Virus record (IMG/VR): IMGVR_UViG_2802429241_000009
DNA length: 39,485 nucleotides
Source of the DNA: a virus
Taxonomy: Duplodnaviria; Heunggongvirae; Uroviricota; Caudoviricetes
Direction: 5' to 3' (one strand)
Shown: piece after piece, positions 1 through 32,750 of the stretch
Layout of the letters: the number at the start of each line of letters is the position of its first letter
How positions within the stretch are numbered: the first letter of the stretch is position 1
Notes under the pieces: model-generated
The model's database searches: none
Seen by the model: the letters and a program-made list of their open reading frames with translations, nothing else
What the model was told of the DNA's origin: nothing
Made by a program: the position numbers and the translations under genes

Positions 1-1251
1 GTGCTTACCGATACAAAATTAAAAAACCTCAAGCCGCAGGACAAACTGTACAAGGTCTCCGATCGTGACGGGCTGTATGTAGCTGTGCTTACGTCAGGCA
101 CGGTCTCGTTTCGTTATGACTACCGTATCAACGGTCGCCGCGAAACACTGGTAATCGGGCAGTATGGGCGTGACGGTATCAGCCTGGCAGAAGCGCGAGA
201 AGAACTGATTGCTGCAAAGAAGCTGCTTAAAGCAGGCCAGTCGCCGGCTGCGGCTAAACGTGACGGTATCAAAAAGATTCGTGGTGCCGAGACGTTTGCG
301 GTACATACCGACAGTTATATGAAACACGTCATCCTGGCTGACAGTACCCGCGCAATGAAGCAGGCGGTGATCGACCGTGACATACTTCCGGTTCTTGGCA
401 ACAAAATGATGGCTGAAATTACCACATCGATGGTTCGTGATTTGTGTGACCGGATTGTCGAACGCGGTGGTCGGGCAACAGCAGTACAGGCCAGGGAGAT
501 CATCAGCAGCGTATACCGTCACGCCAATGACCGTGGTCATGGTTTGTTTAATCCTGCGGCTGACATTAAACCTTCGTCTATCGCCATATTTAAACCACGA
601 GAGCGAACACTGACACCAGAAGAAATTGGCCTGTTCTTCCGCACGTTGGATGCCATTGGTGCTATGGGCACTATGAAAATGGCTTTAAAACTGGTGCTTA
701 TCACTATGGTTCGTAAGGGCGAATTCGCCAATGCAACGTGGGATGAAATAGATTTTAAAAAATGGACATGGACAATTCCTTCAGACCGCATGAAGGGAAG
801 CCGGGCGCATGTTATTTACCTGCCTAAACAGGCTCAGGATATATTGGTCGGGTTGCAGATGTGCGCTGGTGGAAGTGAATATCTGGTTCCTGGTCGTTAC
901 AATTTCAGGAAGCCATTATCTAATGCCGCGCTGAACTCTCTGATCGACAGAACGGTGAAAATAATAAACGAAGATGGTGAGCATATTCAGGACTTCACTG
1001 TACATGATATGCGCCGTACAGCCAGTACGTTGTTGCATGAGGCTGGTTATCCTTCAGACTGGATTGAAAAGGCTCTGGCACATGAGCAGAAAGGTGTGCG
1101 CGCCGTATATAACAAAGCGGAATACGCCAGACAGCGCGCCTACATGTTGCAGCAGTGGGCCGATATGATTGATTCCTGGATTAACGGGGAGCATACGGAT
1201 CTGATTCCGTTCTCCCCGTCGAAGTTTGAGAAGTGGATGGCGGGGGAATAA
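1..1251 (+). CDS. int: Tyrosine-type phage integrase; GTG start at window position 1, so the true 5' end may lie upstream
   Basis: 416-aa ORF; C-terminal HDMRRTAST...LAHEQKGVRAVYNKAEY resembles the tyrosine recombinase catalytic region (R..H..R..Y); N-terminus typical of prophage integrases. Confidence 0.9.
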   Translation: MLTDTKLKNLKPQDKLYKVSDRDGLYVAVLTSGTVSFRYDYRINGRRETLVIGQYGRDGISLAEAREELIAAKKLLKAGQSPAAAKRDGIKKIRGAETFAVHTDSYMKHVILADSTRAMKQAVIDRDILPVLGNKMMAEITTSMVRDLCDRIVERGGRATAVQAREIISSVYRHANDRGHGLFNPAADIKPSSIAIFKPRERTLTPEEIGLFFRTLDAIGAMGTMKMALKLVLITMVRKGEFANATWDEIDFKKWTWTIPSDRMKGSRAHVIYLPKQAQDILVGLQMCAGGSEYLVPGRYNFRKPLSNAALNSLIDRTVKIINEDGEHIQDFTVHDMRRTASTLLHEAGYPSDWIEKALAHEQKGVRAVYNKAEYARQRAYMLQQWADMIDSWINGEHTDLIPFSPSKFEKWMAGE

Positions 1252-1254
1252 CGT

Positions 1255-1449
1255 TTAATAGTTCTGCTGATTTTCTTCCATCTCTGCTTCTGCTGCCAGT
1301 GATTCAATTTTGTTTTCGAATATTGCTGACAGTGTTGCAAATTCAGCATCAGTGACAGCGGGAATTGGAACAAACCTGATCCCGCTGTGTGCAAGCATGT
1401 TTGCAGTTTCAAGGCATTTTCTTAAATCTGCTGGTGATGCCCTGTTCAT
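1255..1449 (-). CDS. Hypothetical small protein (64 aa), last gene of the leftward early operon
   Basis: ATG overlaps the stop of the upstream methylase gene (ATGA overlap at 1446-1449); acidic C-terminus; no recognisable domain. Confidence 0.4.
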   Translation of the reverse strand: MNRASPADLRKCLETANMLAHSGIRFVPIPAVTDAEFATLSAIFENKIESLAAEAEMEENQQNY

Positions 1450-2096
1450 GCAGCACGCTCCCGTCCCTGGTTGTCTGTTGGTGACAGCGGAGCATTGCTG
1501 AATGCATTTGTTAATCCGCCAATATCCAACGCGTATCCAGGGTGTAGTTGCACTGCCGGGTCTTCGCACTGATTACCCCAAACATCGAAGCCATGAGACG
1601 TCTGGCGGGCGAACAGTTCAATGCGAGAAACATCGCCTAATAATTGCACAAGTTTTTCACGAACGATATCTGGCTTTCTTGAATGCTCAAGCCGCGGTGC
1701 GGTAAATGACTGAACGATCCCTGCATTAATGCGCGTAGGTAGTTTTCCCTTTACCGCAAACAGGCAATCTTCACTATTGGCGCGAGTCATGTGTCCCATA
1801 CCCATAACAAGTTTATCTGGTTGTCGACTACCACATTTTATCCACGTGAAGCCCTTCATCGTCATCAGACGGAATCCCCAGGCTTCAACAACTTTTAGTG
1901 CTTCGAGTGGTTGTGTTGGCACCCACCACATGGCCAACAGACAGTTTTCATCGGCCAAATCCCACACAGGAAGGCGGCAGATATCCAGCACACTCATAAC
2001 CGGATATTTAAAACCGGCACCGCGATTACCATCTGCGGCTTTGTCCCGGTATACCCAGGGTGGATCTGCATAGATTAGTGTGTATTTCTTAGTCAT
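1446..2096 (-). CDS. MT-A70 family DNA N6-adenine methyltransferase
   Basis: N-terminal LIYADPPW motif; about 216 aa; start taken at the ATG giving MTKKYT (GTG at 2108 is an alternative). Confidence 0.8.
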   Translation of the reverse strand: MTKKYTLIYADPPWVYRDKAADGNRGAGFKYPVMSVLDICRLPVWDLADENCLLAMWWVPTQPLEALKVVEAWGFRLMTMKGFTWIKCGSRQPDKLVMGMGHMTRANSEDCLFAVKGKLPTRINAGIVQSFTAPRLEHSRKPDIVREKLVQLLGDVSRIELFARQTSHGFDVWGNQCEDPAVQLHPGYALDIGGLTNAFSNAPLSPTDNQGRERAA

Positions 2097-12023: not shown

Positions 12024-13495
12024 CAGATACAGCGTTATCTCCTGAAGAGCAGTTGATCGAGGATATTGCAGGGTTCACTCACGATCCGCTTGGCTATGCC
12101 CTCTATGCGTTCCCGTGGGGGGAAGAGGGGACTGAATTAGCACATGCCACCGGTCCACGTCAGTGGCAGGCTGATGCGTTCCGAGAGATACGTGATCACC
12201 TGCAGAATCCAGAGACGCGCTATCAGCCGCTTATGCTGGCACGCGCTTCGGGTCACGGTATTGGTAAATCCGCATTCATCTCAATGCTGATCAACTGGGG
12301 CATGTCCACTTGCGAGGATTGTAAGGTCGTGGTGACCGCCAACACCGACAACCAGCTACGAACGAAGACCTGGCCGGAAATTATCAAGTGGTCGAACCTT
12401 GCTATCACGAAAGACTGGTTTACCTGTACCGCTACCGCGATGTACAGCAATGACCCTGGGCACGACAAGCGGTGGCGAGCTGACGCAATCCCCTGGTCTG
12501 AGCACAACACTGAGGCATTCGCCGGACTACACAACGAGCGCAAACGCATCATCGTGGTATTCGACGAAGCATCCAACATTGCCGATCTGGTGTGGGAGGT
12601 AGCAGAGGGTGCGCTGACGGACGAAGACACTGAGATTATCTGGGTGGCATTCGGAAACCCTACACGTAACACCGGGCGTTTCCGCGAATGTTTCCGCAAA
12701 TATAAACACCGCTGGAAAACTGCGCAGATTGACAGCCGGACGGTGGAAGGCACTAACAAACAGCAGTTGCAGAAATGGGTTGATGACTACGGGGAAGACA
12801 GCGACTTCGTTAAAATCCGTGTGCGCGGCATATTCCCGGATGCATCTGAATTGCAGTTTATCCCTACCGGCCTTACTGACGAGGCAATGAAACGGGTGGT
12901 AACCGCTGCGCAGGTTGCACATGCTCCGGTGATAATCGGCGTTGACCCGGCATACTCCGGCGTTGATGACGCTGTGATATACCTGCGGCAGGGGCTGCAC
13001 AGTAAGGTGCTGTGGACTGGCAACAAGACCACTGACGATCTGATTATGGCGAAGCGTATCGCTGACTTTGAAGACCAGTACCAGGCTGACGCGGTATTCA
13101 TCGACTTCGGTTACGGTACCGGTCTGAAGTCAATCGGTGACGGCTGGGGGCGTACATGGCAACTTGTTCCGTTCGGCGGTGCGTCCACTGACCCGCAGAT
13201 GCTTAACAAGCGTGGGGAGATGTTCAACTCATGTAAGACATGGCTGAGGCTGGGCGGCATGCTGGATGACCAGGAAACAGCGGACGACCTGTCGGCGGCA
13301 GAGTACAAAGTTCGCGTGGACGGTAAAATCGTTATCGAACCGAAGGAAGATATCAAGGAGCGGCTTGGGCGTTCTCCTGGTAAAGGCGATGCGCTATTGC
13401 TGACGTTTGCTTTCCCGGTGTCGAAGCGCCTGCGACTTCCCGGGCAGCAGAACCAGCAAGGCAAGGCCATTACAGATTACGATCCCTATGCTTAA
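12020..13495 (+). CDS. Terminase large subunit
   Basis: 491 aa; Walker A-like ARASGHGIGKS; position upstream of portal. Confidence 0.9.
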   Translation: MTDTALSPEEQLIEDIAGFTHDPLGYALYAFPWGEEGTELAHATGPRQWQADAFREIRDHLQNPETRYQPLMLARASGHGIGKSAFISMLINWGMSTCEDCKVVVTANTDNQLRTKTWPEIIKWSNLAITKDWFTCTATAMYSNDPGHDKRWRADAIPWSEHNTEAFAGLHNERKRIIVVFDEASNIADLVWEVAEGALTDEDTEIIWVAFGNPTRNTGRFRECFRKYKHRWKTAQIDSRTVEGTNKQQLQKWVDDYGEDSDFVKIRVRGIFPDASELQFIPTGLTDEAMKRVVTAAQVAHAPVIIGVDPAYSGVDDAVIYLRQGLHSKVLWTGNKTTDDLIMAKRIADFEDQYQADAVFIDFGYGTGLKSIGDGWGRTWQLVPFGGASTDPQMLNKRGEMFNSCKTWLRLGGMLDDQETADDLSAAEYKVRVDGKIVIEPKEDIKERLGRSPGKGDALLLTFAFPVSKRLRLPGQQNQQGKAITDYDPYA

Positions 13496-13623
13496 TCCGC
13501 TGGAGGGGATAATGACGAAGATATCCTCTGGCGAGGATAAAGCAAATCCAGTCTATGAGCTGGCTGTTTGTGACATGTCACGACATCAAAATGCATCGAA
13601 TTCGTATTTCATGATTCACAGCT

Positions 13624-13648
13624 TAAAAAAATGCCCGGCGAACCGGGC
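13624..13648 (-). terminator. Intrinsic terminator on the minus strand downstream of the tRNA gene
   Basis: Minus-strand hairpin GCCCGG-TTCG-CCGGGC followed by ATTTTTTT. Confidence 0.65.
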
Positions 13649-13811
13649 GAACTGGAAGCGATGAGTTATGCCTTCCGTGGCTGTACGGGTTTACAGCATG
13701 AAGTCATCGCAATGGCGTCCTGCTGTAAAAAGGGTGGTGATAGTCCTTCAAGGGAAACCATCACCGCCAAGCACCTGGAACTTCTGGCATCACGGTCCTT
13801 AGGCGTGATTC

Positions 13812-13888
13812 TGGCGTGGCATGCAGGATTCGAACCTGCGACCAACCGCTTAGAAGGCGGTTGCTCTGTCCGACTGAGCTAATGCCAC
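13812..13888 (-). tRNA. tRNA-Arg (anticodon UCU), phage-borne
   Basis: 77 nt with full cloverleaf: 7-bp acceptor GTGGCAT/ATGCCAC, D-stem GCTC/GAGC, anticodon stem ACCGC/GCGGT with loop CTTCTAA, T-arm GCAGG-TTCGAAT-CCTGC, encoded CCA; close to E. coli argU as recalled. Confidence 0.85.
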
Positions 13889-14210
13889 AACGCTGAGAGC
13901 ACTTAGCCTGTTAAGGCACCACACTTTGTTGCGGCTCCATAAATGCTCTCATCGTTGTACCCTCGTCTCTTCCGAGGCGTCACACCGAATCGCCAGGATG
14001 GTGAATCCCCGTGCGCGGAATAAAACCGCTCGACTTGCACATTCCGGCTACCTGGTTCGTTTGCCCGAGCAAGGGAGGGTGCCCCTTAAACGTATCCAGA
14101 CCGCTATCGTCGCATGTGCCATACGCCGTACTGCTCAAAATAAAAGCTCACTCCACCTGTTCAATTTAACGACAAGCCAGTCAGGTTAGTAACCGGAATG
14201 AACTTTTTGG

Positions 14211-14225
14211 TTACCTTAAAGGTAA
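14211..14225. promoter_or_regulatory. Operator-like palindrome TTACC-N5-GGTAA upstream of the portal-proximal genes
   Basis: Exact; in the noncoding region between the tRNA and the structural genes. Confidence 0.5.
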
Positions 14226-14315
14226 TAATTCGTGCGTTAAATGTCAACCATCTACGATAAATAAATCATATGTGGTTAAATTGGTAATAATTTAATTGCG
14301 TACGGAGTCATTGAT

Positions 14316-14522
14316 ATGTGCATGGGTAGCTCACCATCAGTGCCTGCAACACCAGAAGTTCAGGCAGCACCACAGGAGCAGGATGCCGCCGTTGTTGATG
14401 CCCGCGACGAAGAAACACGTCGCCGTCGCGCTGCTGCTGGTCGTAGTTCTACGCTGCTTACCGGTTCTCAGGGCGACACATCAACCGCTAATACCAGCGG
14501 TAAAACGCTGCTTGGTCAGTAA
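14316..14522 (+). CDS. Hypothetical small protein (68 aa) upstream of portal
   Basis: GGAG SD; shares a 12-bp initiation-region repeat with the portal gene; Ala/Pro/Arg-rich. Confidence 0.35.
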   Translation: MCMGSSPSVPATPEVQAAPQEQDAAVVDARDEETRRRRAAAGRSSTLLTGSQGDTSTANTSGKTLLGQ

Positions 14523-14536
14523 CCGGAGTCATTGAA

Positions 14537-16216
14537 ATGGCGGAAACAACTAAAGAGCGATTGAACAAACAGTTCGCACAACTTGAAAGCGAGCGTCAGT
14601 CGTTCGAGCCGCACTGGCGCGAGTTGAGTGATTACATCAACCCGCGTGGTTCCCGCTTTCTGACTTCTGAGGTCAACCGTAACGATAGACGCAATACACG
14701 AATTATTGATTCGACCGGGACTATGGCGGCGCGCACTCTCGCCAGCGGCATGATGTCAGGCATCACAAGCCCCGCGCGTCCGTGGTTTCGCCTGGCTACG
14801 CCAGATCCTGAAATGATGGATTATGGCCCTGTTAAGTTGTGGCTTGAGGCGGTGCAGAACCGCATGAACGATATGTTCAATAAGTCGAATCTCTACCAGT
14901 CTCTTCCGCAGTTATACGGAAGCCTCGGCACATACAGCACTGGTGCAATGGCGGTACTGGAGGATGACGAGGACATCATTCGCACAATGCCATTCCCTAT
15001 AGGCAGTTACTACCTGGCTAACTCACCTCGTGGCAGTGTGGACACCTGTTTTCGCAAGTTCTCTATGACTGTTCGTCAGCTTGTTCAGGAGTTCGGGCTA
15101 AATAACGTCAGCGAATCCGTAAAAAGCATGTGGGAAAGCGGCACCTACGAGAAGTGGATTGAGGTGATGCATTCGGTTTACCCGAACATTGACCGCGATA
15201 CATCGAAGCTGGATAGCAAGAACAAGCCATTCAAATCGGTTTATTACGAGGTTGGCGGCGATAACGACAAGTTGTTGCGTGAGTCCGGATTCGATGAGTT
15301 TCCAATTATGGCTCCGCGCTGGGAAGTTAACGGCGAAGATGTTTATGGATCATCATGCCCGGGTATGCTGGCGCTTGGACCTGTTAAGGCATTGCAGCTT
15401 CTCCAGAAGCGTAAGTCGCAGTTGATTGATAAAGCCACCAATCCGCCGATGGTTGCTCCGACTTCCCTCAAGAATCAGCGCGCATCCCTTCTTCCTGGCG
15501 ACATCACGTATATCGATCAGATTACTGGTCAGGATGGTTTCAGGCCTGCTTATCTGGTTAACCCCAGTACAGCAGATCTGGTAGCAGACATTCAGGACAC
15601 TCGCCAAATCATTAACAGCGCCTACTTTGTCGATCTGTTCATGATGTTGCACAACATCAATACCCGCTCGATGCCTGTTGAAGCAGTGATCGAAATGAAA
15701 GAAGAAAAACTTCTAATGTTGGGGCCGGTTCTGGAGCGTCTGAACGACGAATGTCTTAATCCTCTCATTGACCGCGCTTTCTCGATGATGGTGCGTAAAA
15801 ACATGCTGCCGCCACCGCCTGACGCGATGGAAGGCATGCCCCTGAAGGTCGAATACATTTCCGTCATGGCTCAGGCGCAGAAGTCTATCGGCCTGTCCAG
15901 TCTGGCGTCCACGGTTAACTTCATTGGTCAACTTGCGCAAGCGAAACCAGAAGCTCTCGACAAACTCAACGTTGATCAGGCGATCGATGCATTCGCTGAT
16001 ATGTCCGGAGTGTCTCCAACCGTCATTGTTCCGCAGGAACAGGTTGAGCAGGCTCGCCAGCAACGGGCACAGCAGCAACAGCAGCAACAAATGATGGCGA
16101 TGGGGATGGCGGCGGCACAGGGTGCCAAGACGCTAAGCGAAGCTAAAACTTCGGAGCCGAGTGTTTTGTCAGCCATGGCGAATGCAGTTAGTGGTCATGG
16201 TGGGCAATCACAATGA
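14537..16216 (+). CDS. Portal (head-to-tail connector) protein, T7 gp8-like
   Basis: 559 aa; Gln/Ala/Met-rich C-terminus resembles the T7 portal C-terminus as recalled; position after terminase and before scaffold and capsid. Confidence 0.75.
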   Translation: MAETTKERLNKQFAQLESERQSFEPHWRELSDYINPRGSRFLTSEVNRNDRRNTRIIDSTGTMAARTLASGMMSGITSPARPWFRLATPDPEMMDYGPVKLWLEAVQNRMNDMFNKSNLYQSLPQLYGSLGTYSTGAMAVLEDDEDIIRTMPFPIGSYYLANSPRGSVDTCFRKFSMTVRQLVQEFGLNNVSESVKSMWESGTYEKWIEVMHSVYPNIDRDTSKLDSKNKPFKSVYYEVGGDNDKLLRESGFDEFPIMAPRWEVNGEDVYGSSCPGMLALGPVKALQLLQKRKSQLIDKATNPPMVAPTSLKNQRASLLPGDITYIDQITGQDGFRPAYLVNPSTADLVADIQDTRQIINSAYFVDLFMMLHNINTRSMPVEAVIEMKEEKLLMLGPVLERLNDECLNPLIDRAFSMMVRKNMLPPPPDAMEGMPLKVEYISVMAQAQKSIGLSSLASTVNFIGQLAQAKPEALDKLNVDQAIDAFADMSGVSPTVIVPQEQVEQARQQRAQQQQQQQMMAMGMAAAQGAKTLSEAKTSEPSVLSAMANAVSGHGGQSQ

Positions 16217-32509: not shown

Positions 32510-32667
32510 GGCAATCACCTTTTAGTATGGTTAATCACCACCTGAGGTGCAAATCTCGTTGGTGGTGAGACGTACAGGGTTTGCACTACCGGCTAAAAGG
32601 ACCCGGCGCACCTTTCGGTGCCCCTGCACGTCCCACCATAATTCTGGCATGACTGTGCTATACGCAT

Positions 32668-32690
32668 AAAAAAACCACGTCTGGCGTGGT
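32668..32690 (-). terminator. Intrinsic terminator inside the antirepressor upstream region (attenuator or 3' end of a short RNA)
   Basis: Minus-strand ACCACG-CCAGA-CGTGGT followed by TTTTTTTAT. Confidence 0.6.
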
Positions 32691-32750
32691 ATGCGCCTTT
32701 TAGTAATCCGGGGTGCAAATCCCGGCACTGGATTTTGCCAGTGCTCGATT

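Follow-up and report, generated by a model that had tools for sequence, protein, structure and literature searches.

Between the terminase and portal genes of a tailed phage (Duplodnaviria; Heunggongvirae; Uroviricota; Caudoviricetes; IMG/VR record IMGVR_UViG_2802429241_000009) lies a gap whose minus strand carries a tRNA-Arg with anticodon UCU, a terminator behind it and, in front of it, a noncoding stretch (13889..14210). The window referred to throughout is the whole of this record, 39,485 nucleotides long. By its sequence the tRNA is an ordinary one, already known from close relatives, and the novelty of the locus rests on the RNA upstream of it. This RNA of ~245 nt, a pseudoknotted core followed by a stem-closed variable domain (H7), is a widespread family without an entry in Rfam 15.

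The window derives from a phiV10/epsilon15-like podophage of the genus Uetakevirus, and its positions 13400-14540 are 96-97% identical to phiv142-3, HEMP4, phiV10 and the O157 typing phages 9 and 10. The initial annotation had placed the tRNA between the terminase and portal genes, antisense to the structural operon. The position and the strand were right, but the operon is not continuous: a terminator-like hairpin closes the terminase operon where a terminator is annotated in phiV10, a small gene precedes the portal gene, and the gp3/portal operon has a conserved block of its own upstream. The tRNA and its companion RNA thus sit in a gap between two operons. From this architecture, 13624..14247 looks like a single leftward, mostly noncoding transcription unit under repressor control. 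It would run from about 14212 to 13625 and hold, in the order that we infer, a promoter with its operator, the core, H7, the tRNA, a small RNA (sRNA)-like module with terminator T1, and terminator T2 (Table 1).

Table 1. Features of the leftward unit, of its neighbourhood and of the corresponding place in relatives (window coordinates unless a locus is named).
Feature	Position	Strand	Description and basis
Conserved pseudoknotted RNA core, ~175 nt	13958..14131	-	Alignment A1 and covariance model
H1	14128..14123 / 14113..14108	-
H2, closing stem	14101..14096 / 14055..14050	-
H3, variable hairpin	about 14030..14012	-
H4	14009..14006 / 13998..13995	-
H6	13977..13973 / 13965..13961	-	Loop GAAGAGA
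PKa, pseudoknot	14119..14114 with 14042..14037	-	H1 loop with ATGTGC of the 19-mer
PKb, pseudoknot	14003..14000 with 13986..13983	-	H4 loop CACC with downstream GGUG
Near-invariant 19-mer	14052..14034	-	GGUAGCCGGAAUGUGCAAG
H7 domain	13888..13957	-	Minimum-free-energy fold; 14-bp stem closing a 42-nt insert with two small hairpins
H7 stem	13957..13944 with 13901..13888	-	CAACGAUGAGAGCA with UGCUCUCAGCGUUG
tRNA-Arg, anticodon UCU	13812..13888	-	ARAGORN and Rfam RF00005; 77 nt, 3' CCA encoded
sRNA-like trailer	13727..13811	-	Terminator scan, fold z-score, relatives
Trailer hairpin	13809..13789	-	AUCACG-CCUAAGGAC-CGUGAU; conserved
T1, terminator-like hairpin	13765..13736	-	11 pairs and tail CCCUUUUUA
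Hairpin region and T2	13625..13726	-	Kept in epsilon15, SPN9TCW, Tyrion and the Klebsiella phage
T2, intrinsic terminator	Stem 13648..13633, U7 13631..13625	-	Stem GCCCGG-UUCG-CCGGGC, A, U7
P_left, candidate early leftward promoter	14219..14247	-	TTGACA (14247..14242), 17-nt spacer, TACCTT (14224..14219)
Palindrome TTACCTTAAAGGTAA	14211..14225		Over the P_left -10; kept in six phages
Weaker alternative promoter-like site	14137..14164	-	TTGAAC-16-TATTTT; relaxed scan, 8/12 matches
Eight-codon open reading frame MKYEFDAF*	13586..13612	-	Where relatives hold a cargo gene
Cargo genes behind T2 in relatives	L001 1687..2058; L004 983..1504; L005 1088..1594; L006 (epsilon15) 1250..1615
Terminase large subunit gene	End at 13495
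Terminator-like hairpin behind terminase operon	13548..13563	+	Position of the terminator annotated in phiV10
Small gene	14316..14522	+	Between noncoding stretch and portal gene
Portal gene	14537..16216	+

The fold of the core was evident from an alignment, A1, of 46 homologues dereplicated at 88% identity. When four nested helices (H1, H2, H4 and H6) and the two pseudoknots are scored, 96.3% of the cells are paired and 13 pairs are changed on both sides. None of 500 column shuffles matched these values, and sliding the register by 1-3 columns lowered pairing to 26-47%. The compensatory changes are located in the four helices and one pseudoknot, PKb, in which a single C-G pair has become A-U in four sequences. 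PKa is invariant and therefore receives no support from covariation either way. RNAalifold would instead pair the 5' strand at long range; of these two pairings, only the local H1 hairpin is changed on both sides. Overall, near-invariant blocks are separated by variable hairpins that change in a compensatory manner, and frequent G-U pairs, some of them invariant, mark the minus strand of the window as the functional one. A covariance model built from A1, termed R1, scores 140.5 bits in the window, 139 in mEp460 and 134 in P1.

No family of Rfam 15 matches the core in a search of the whole window at gathering thresholds or in more permissive searches of 13450..14350 (E up to 10) and of eight homologous loci (E up to 1). 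The covariance-model scan that had been proposed for 13889..14210 thus returns no known family, and it is the model made from the homologues themselves that recognizes the element. The same interval had been described as lacking a convincing open reading frame (ORF), which is confirmed across the 46 diverse homologues: in any frame on either strand, at most 17 of them are open, and insertions and deletions are not multiples of three, so that a protein-coding region was rejected. Its inverted repeats are real and correspond to the covarying helices. Of the roles that had been listed for it, that of a noncoding RNA stands, as the element is conserved, covarying and on the strand of the tRNA; a packaging site is unsupported, the element occurring in early regions of P1 and lambdoid phages, distant from packaging genes, and the best promoter candidate lies outside the interval. 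Three further candidates were rejected: hidden tRNA pseudogenes (none by ARAGORN or the Rfam tRNA model in 13889..14131), a sigma54 promoter at TGGCAC in the H1 loop (the -12 element is absent), and a T-loop in H4 (with C instead of A as its fifth base). Full-text literature searches, whose coverage is incomplete and which leave an earlier description possible, found no account of the core, and the RNA is apparently undescribed.

The element is by no means confined to phages like that of the window. A sensitive BLAST search with 13889..14215 found ~80% identical DNA in unannotated intergenic regions of very different phages. In P1, P7, D6, SJ46 and RCS47, it lies between trnI, which encodes tRNA-Ile2, and the helicase gene ban, with the core beginning ~12 nt past the 3' end of the tRNA in P1. 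In the lambdoid phages mEp460 and cdtI, in Shiga toxin (Stx) 2c-converting phages and in the Stx2a phage WGPS2, it lies just downstream of a cI-like repressor gene. It is also present in mEp390, Klebsiella SopranoGao, Enterobacter Tyrion, Salmonella phages and a phage whose database record assigns it to Stenotrophomonas. Its orientation always agrees with that of the flanking or downstream genes and corresponds to the minus strand of the window.

More than 120 IMG/VR contigs contain the 19-mer, GGTAGCCGGAATGTGCAAG, as do 24 species-representative genomes; 22 of these genomes belong to named enterobacterial genera, and the other two are metagenome bins labelled Bacillota/Oscillospiraceae, in which we suspect contamination. 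A search anchored on another block added only five copies, each with one change in the 19-mer, so that its invariance is no artefact of the search. Among 5426 complete Escherichia coli genomes, 817 (~15%) match part of a 13600-14320 query, at 540 chromosomal and 356 plasmid places, and the listed plasmid records measure ~90-100 kb, as P1-like phage-plasmids do. Linkage to a tRNA is frequent and not universal: among 134 instances, tRNA-Arg lies ~164 nt downstream of the 19-mer in 31, tRNA-Ile2 lies just upstream in 17 (the P1-like phages), and 86 have no adjacent tRNA.

Some relatives have lost or exchanged parts of the unit. Phages of the epsilon15 type lack the core (except for H1), H7, the tRNA and the 5' half of T1, which corresponds to 13763..14093 of the window. 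The deletion junction (L006 1757..1760, also in L172) falls inside the 13-nt sequence UUCCCUUGAUGCU, a motif that SPN1S-type relatives have in both their H2 and T1 loops, and this suggests a repeat-mediated deletion. The early region of ST64B is organized in a like manner (L162 7239..8053, minus strand), with a repressor gene, pL and a long untranslated leader in which a stem like H7 is followed by a tRNA-shaped module, a seed like that of RprA, and T1, and yet the covariance model finds no match there. In place of the core is a different 5' head of ~300 nt, which holds GUAGCCAGUGCAAG, reminiscent of the 19-mer. A different head on the same downstream modules suggests that heads are interchangeable.

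The part of the unit that follows the core is modular as well. The final G of the H7 stem is nucleotide 1 of the tRNA. This stem is present in at least 90 of 159 instances, around inserts of 41-142 nt, and some of its variants are compensated (e.g., CAACGATGATGGCT/AGTCATCTTCGTTG). On its 3' side, relatives have either tRNA-Arg or a tRNA-shaped module, GUGGUGAAUGCGCAGGCUGAUGCGC...CCACCACAAC, which combines an acceptor-like stem (GUGGUG/CACCAC) with a D-arm-like hairpin. For 13618..13811, which includes the trailer, the fold z-score is -2.8. The trailer spacer of relatives bears an RprA-like seed, GCUGUGUGUAGUC, which the copy in the window does not have. At L011 1355..1474 (minus strand) and at many IMG/VR loci (e.g., L060 and L101), an RNA with the RprA-like 3' seed UUGCUGUGUGUAGUCUU and a terminator hairpin is found; from this likeness, it may be a mimic of the host sRNA RprA. 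Between T1 and T2 lies an imperfect palindrome of 40 nt (80%; 13690..13729), kept in all Uetakevirus relatives, which is the ACAGCA...UGCUGU hairpin region of the trailer.

T2 has the makings of an intrinsic terminator, as predicted from its six G-C pairs, 4-nt loop and run of seven U residues. A clean terminator at 13624..13648 had been assigned to the tRNA, and the terminator is indeed there; it is not simply the tRNA's own, as T1 and ~160 nt of conserved structured RNA intervene, and in relatives another gene has its start codon ~20 nt past it. AAGGTGA...ATG (a Shine-Dalgarno sequence and the start codon of a minus-strand gene) follows T2 within ~10 nt in SPN9TCW, the Klebsiella phage, Tyrion and many viral contigs, and in phiV10 and epsilon15 a minus-strand gene lies ~10-20 nt past it. 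The annotated start of SPN9TCW_003 crosses the T2 hairpin and is probably 30 codons too far upstream. These cargo genes encode members of the Gp49/Sf6 gp66 family (PF13876), a Tad2-like Thoeris anti-defence domain (PF11195) and an SPFH-like membrane protein. Judging from its place, the eight-codon ORF of the window is probably the remnant of a deleted cargo gene. Downstream of the unit in Tyrion is an int-alpA RNA (RF02996; 44 bits, gathering score 35.8; L014 450..514, minus strand).

Upstream of the core, the candidate promoter P_left was recognized by reading the sequence and by a relaxed scan, with a predicted start near 14212, just outside 13889..14210. A strict consensus promoter scan did not call it. 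We therefore propose it on the strength of conservation, since its hexamers and spacing are kept in six Uetakevirus-like phages. The palindrome TTACCTTAAAGGTAA is likely an operator: it aligns with a protein_bind feature, "repressor" (plus an IHF site), in the GenBank record of epsilon15, itself a prediction. The weaker promoter-like site ends ~6 nt ahead of the core and is not kept in Tyrion or the Klebsiella relatives. Beyond P_left, an AT-rich block (14226..14315; 28% GC) is almost invariant in six related phages and contains GGTTAAATTGGTAATAAT, which may serve the rightward gp3/portal operon as an extended -10 promoter, together with a second operator-like half-site; with P_left, this site would form a divergent, operator-controlled pair. 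In mEp460, the core starts ~45 nt downstream of a pL-like promoter (TTGCAT-17-TATCTT) that follows directly on the cI terminator and lies among operator repeats. Of 129 unique contexts, 46% have a sigma70-like site (nine or more of twelve matches) within 125 nt upstream of H1, against 4% for a control window. The core is promoter-proximal in operator-controlled early units of three unrelated phage groups.

The tRNA itself holds few surprises. The complete 77-nt tRNA(UCU) of the initial annotation is borne out by ARAGORN, which finds it as the one tRNA of the whole window (anticodon tct at position 35, in a 7-nt loop), and by RF00005, whose gathering score of 29 it exceeds with 73.3 bits (E 2.4e-14). 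Its 3' end reads ...GCCACGCCA, with the CCA present. The same tRNA-Arg is annotated in phiv142-3, typing phages 9 and 10, SPN9TCW, SPC32H/N, Klebsiella phage ST512-KPC3phi13.3 and many RefSeq E. coli prophages; the phiV10 reference records have the hypothetical ORF PhiV10p04 across it on the opposite strand instead. AGA makes up 6.7 per 1000 codons of the phage ORFs and 10.7% of their Arg codons, with a concentration in tail, injection and tailspike genes and almost none in head genes. This usage is several-fold above that of E. coli. A role in AGA decoding, for which a codon count had been suggested as a check, is therefore plausible.

Two matches to known RNAs lie apart from the unit. In the window, a C4 antisense RNA (RF01695, 77.8 bits) and isrK (RF01394, 67.4 bits) stand side by side at 32558..32744 (minus strand), a P1/P7-type immI-like antirepressor control module here within a Uetakevirus genome. 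In P1, the upl/tciA intergenic region (L007 2493..2612, minus strand) weakly resembles STnc100, with 33 bits where the gathering score is 47.

What would such an RNA do at the start of an early transcript? Our tentative choice, to which we give somewhat less than an even chance, is that the core is a cis-acting antiterminator leader that renders RNA polymerase resistant to terminators. It would act on its own transcription complex and make E. coli RNA polymerase terminator-resistant in a processive manner, like HK022 put. Transcription from the early promoter would then pass T1 and T2 and reach the accessory and anti-defence genes right behind T2, of which the window would have lost its own; the tRNA would be a passenger that provides AGA decoding for the AGA-rich tail genes. 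The arrangement of terminators is consistent with this. Downstream of the core, 82 of 115 unique contexts (71%) have at least one terminator-like hairpin ahead of the first ORF with a Shine-Dalgarno sequence. In 27 of those 82, only 17-24 nt separate the end of the hairpin from the start codon; a promoter would not fit there, so that these genes depend on read-through. The distance from core to terminator varies, as do the modules in between (tRNA, tRNA-like, RprA-like), so that any effect on termination must act at a distance; this favours a processive effect over an alternative structure of the riboswitch type. Moreover, mEp460 has no annotated N gene. More doubtful is the wider proposal, drawn from the same comparisons, that the core represents a second, structurally unrelated class of factor-independent processive antiterminators, one that would license early transcription in P1, in lambdoid phages without an annotated N (including Stx phages) and in phiV10/epsilon15-like phages and would gate their anti-defence cargo.

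Several points weigh against antitermination. In P1, the element is in the middle of an operon, after a tRNA, and no terminator was found before ban. Each genome has one copy of the element, as against putL and putR in HK022, and the core is 2-3 times the size of put and not homologous to it. Epsilon15 keeps T2 and a downstream gene despite having lost most of the core, while the phage of the window retains the unit though it has no gene behind T2. T1 and T2 may simply terminate noncoding transcripts, and the flanking tRNA and tRNA-like modules fit the excision of a free RNA equally well. Finally, the single-sequence folding energy of core and H7 is unremarkable (z = -1.0) and uninformative.

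The main rival of antitermination is such a free RNA. Core and H7 would form a stable trans-acting noncoding RNA, excised from the early transcript by RNase P or RNase E at the adjacent tRNA or tRNA-like module, much as C4 of P1 and CI of P4 are processed. It would then bind a conserved host factor early in infection, perhaps to decoy or inhibit it. We consider this unlikely, if well worth keeping in mind. H7 ends exactly at nucleotide 1 of the tRNA, phages without the tRNA have the tRNA-shaped module in its place, and the proximity of the P1 core to the tRNA-Ile 3' end would suit excision as well. Two pseudoknots together with near-invariant single-stranded blocks recall protein-binding RNAs, and the element sits in a cluster of RNA genes beside anti-defence cargo. 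However, neither a partner protein nor a co-occurring gene was identified, copies of the P1 type lack H7 and the downstream tRNA-like module, and cleavage by RNase P is deduced from position. Nor would a free RNA explain the promoterless coding genes directly behind T2.

It is improbable, and more so than a free RNA, that the core serves in cis as a stabilizing or processing scaffold whose compact 5' structure shields a long untranslated transcript (tRNA, sRNA-like modules and leader) from 5'-end-dependent RNase E and from Rho loading and organizes its processing. The element invariably stands at the 5' end, or close to it, of long structured untranslated leaders, such as the ~720-nt gap in mEp460, and the H7 stem around its hypervariable inserts resembles a processing stem; simple protective hairpins, however, would have no need of invariant 19-nt single-stranded blocks across unrelated phages, and the P1 element is internal to an operon. 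A riboswitch-like sensor of a small molecule or a tRNA, gating T1 and T2 through alternative structures, is very improbable. Although the pseudoknotted fold with its invariant junction nucleotides is aptamer-like, and the 5' strand has two mutually exclusive pairings (the local H1 hairpin and the long-range helix), the terminators are 120-600 nt away with interchangeable modules between, which leaves no overlapping expression platform. The cargo genes share no metabolic theme, and neither 13450..14350 nor the eight homologous loci match an Rfam riboswitch. Least credible of all is spacer DNA with only a tRNA promoter, a late promoter or a pac site, its structure a mere sign of shared ancestry, or a real 87-aa ORF at 13926..14189 (plus strand): the weak promoter-like site (14164..14137) and the opposite-strand ORFs annotated in mEp460 and phiV10 would fit, but covariation and frame analyses already contradict this, given compensatory changes in four helices and a pseudoknot, the drop in pairing to 26-47% under register shifts, the want of a conserved frame, and the presence of the element at non-homologous positions of unrelated phages in constant orientation to transcription. 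The plus-strand ORFs of the window (13631..13882 and 13926..14189) are antisense to RNA genes and their frames are not conserved, and their annotated counterparts, PhiV10p04 (L001 2081..2332, opposite tRNA and trailer) and mEp460_037 (L008 1430..1798, opposite the element), are probably spurious.

A complex and strongly conserved fold has been overlooked by annotation in P1 and in Stx-converting phages, where RefSeq and GenBank records leave the element blank or place ORFs opposite it. An antiterminator role would explain transcription past the pL-leader terminators of lambdoid phages without an annotated N, and the core would then join a single other phage RNA known to reprogram RNA polymerase with no protein involved. 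Were it a free RNA, phages would have in it a new early effector against a conserved host factor. The region behind T2 is in addition a hotspot for anti-defence genes, such as those for Tad2-like proteins.

How does the unit compare with known systems? Its tRNA is a member of the class of phage-borne tRNA-Arg(UCU), from which it differs in nothing of substance. Such genes are common in phages, the closest match outside the family being a cyanophage tRNA-Arg (92%); argO of Stx phages and the tRNA-Arg of T4-like phages and cyanophages are likewise standard UCU cloverleafs, here in a phage with AGA-rich tail genes. The module before T1 in relatives recalls the sRNA RprA (RF00034), with a similar 3' seed followed by a terminator. 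RF00034 finds no match in the window, and in the relative L011 it reaches 50.2 bits, below the gathering score of 70. The Pas sRNAs of enteropathogenic E. coli prophages were rejected as relatives, being unrelated and located in late regions.

In the lambda pR'-6S RNA-tR' arrangement and with the sRNA StxS, a promoter-proximal transcript either stops as a small RNA or reads through to genes (PMC7547250). In those cases antitermination depends on a protein, Q, which acts at a DNA site, whereas here no Q-like partner is linked and the unit is early and operator-controlled, not late. The C4 RNA of P1 and the CI RNA of P4 (Rfam clan CL00128) are small structured phage RNAs excised from a longer early transcript. 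This excision involves RNase P. In contrast to the core, they are antisense regulators of ~77-80 nt with a defined downstream target; they resemble it neither in sequence nor by model, and no target complementarity of their kind was identified for the core.

Nor does the unit look like a lambda-type nut site. The minus strand at 13600..14260 contains no boxA (CGCUCUUA / GCUCUUUA), even when 1-3 mismatches are allowed, and a candidate boxA in mEp460 was rejected since it is actually the 3' side of a T1-type terminator. The H6 loop, GAAGAGA, is similar to the GAAGA loop of lambda nutL boxB but is 7 nt long. No first gene of the N family was found; the first genes have no Pfam match or are of the Gp49/Sf6 gp66 or Tad2-like kind, and in P1 the first is the DnaB-like helicase Ban.

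The closest functional parallel would be put. The putL and putR sites of HK022 and the putL-like RNA of HK639 are factor-independent processive antiterminator RNAs (PMC9378689). Homology between put and the core was ruled out: model R1 has no match in the 22-32 kb region of HK022, which covers putL and putR, or in the whole HK639 genome, and HK639 putL, which aligns to HK022 putL at 90% over 30 nt, aligns to the element only at the level of shuffles. The first hairpin of the window, mEp460 and P1 type shares the strands CGGCG...AUGCGUCG with put stem I; since this stem shows covariation inside the family and the residues key to put are missing, we take the likeness to be chance. Put requires U28 and G35; of its essential features, the core lacks G35, the 5' duplex/triplex and the V shape of two stems, as the position aligned with G35 varies (U/A/C/G) and the A3-G7 duplex is absent. 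Put, which counters termination by binding the zinc-binding domain of the RNA polymerase beta' subunit, has two copies per genome and the element one, with no second, putR-like copy found by the covariance model in mEp460 and none in its rightward operon. In their setting, the two have some points in common. Both are structured RNAs encoded in cis just past pL in lambdoid phages without an annotated N, upstream of terminators, and both are conserved among phages of the same host. Whereas put achieves its effect with ~70 nt, folded into two stems with a triplex, the core extends over ~175 nt with at least five helices and two pseudoknots.

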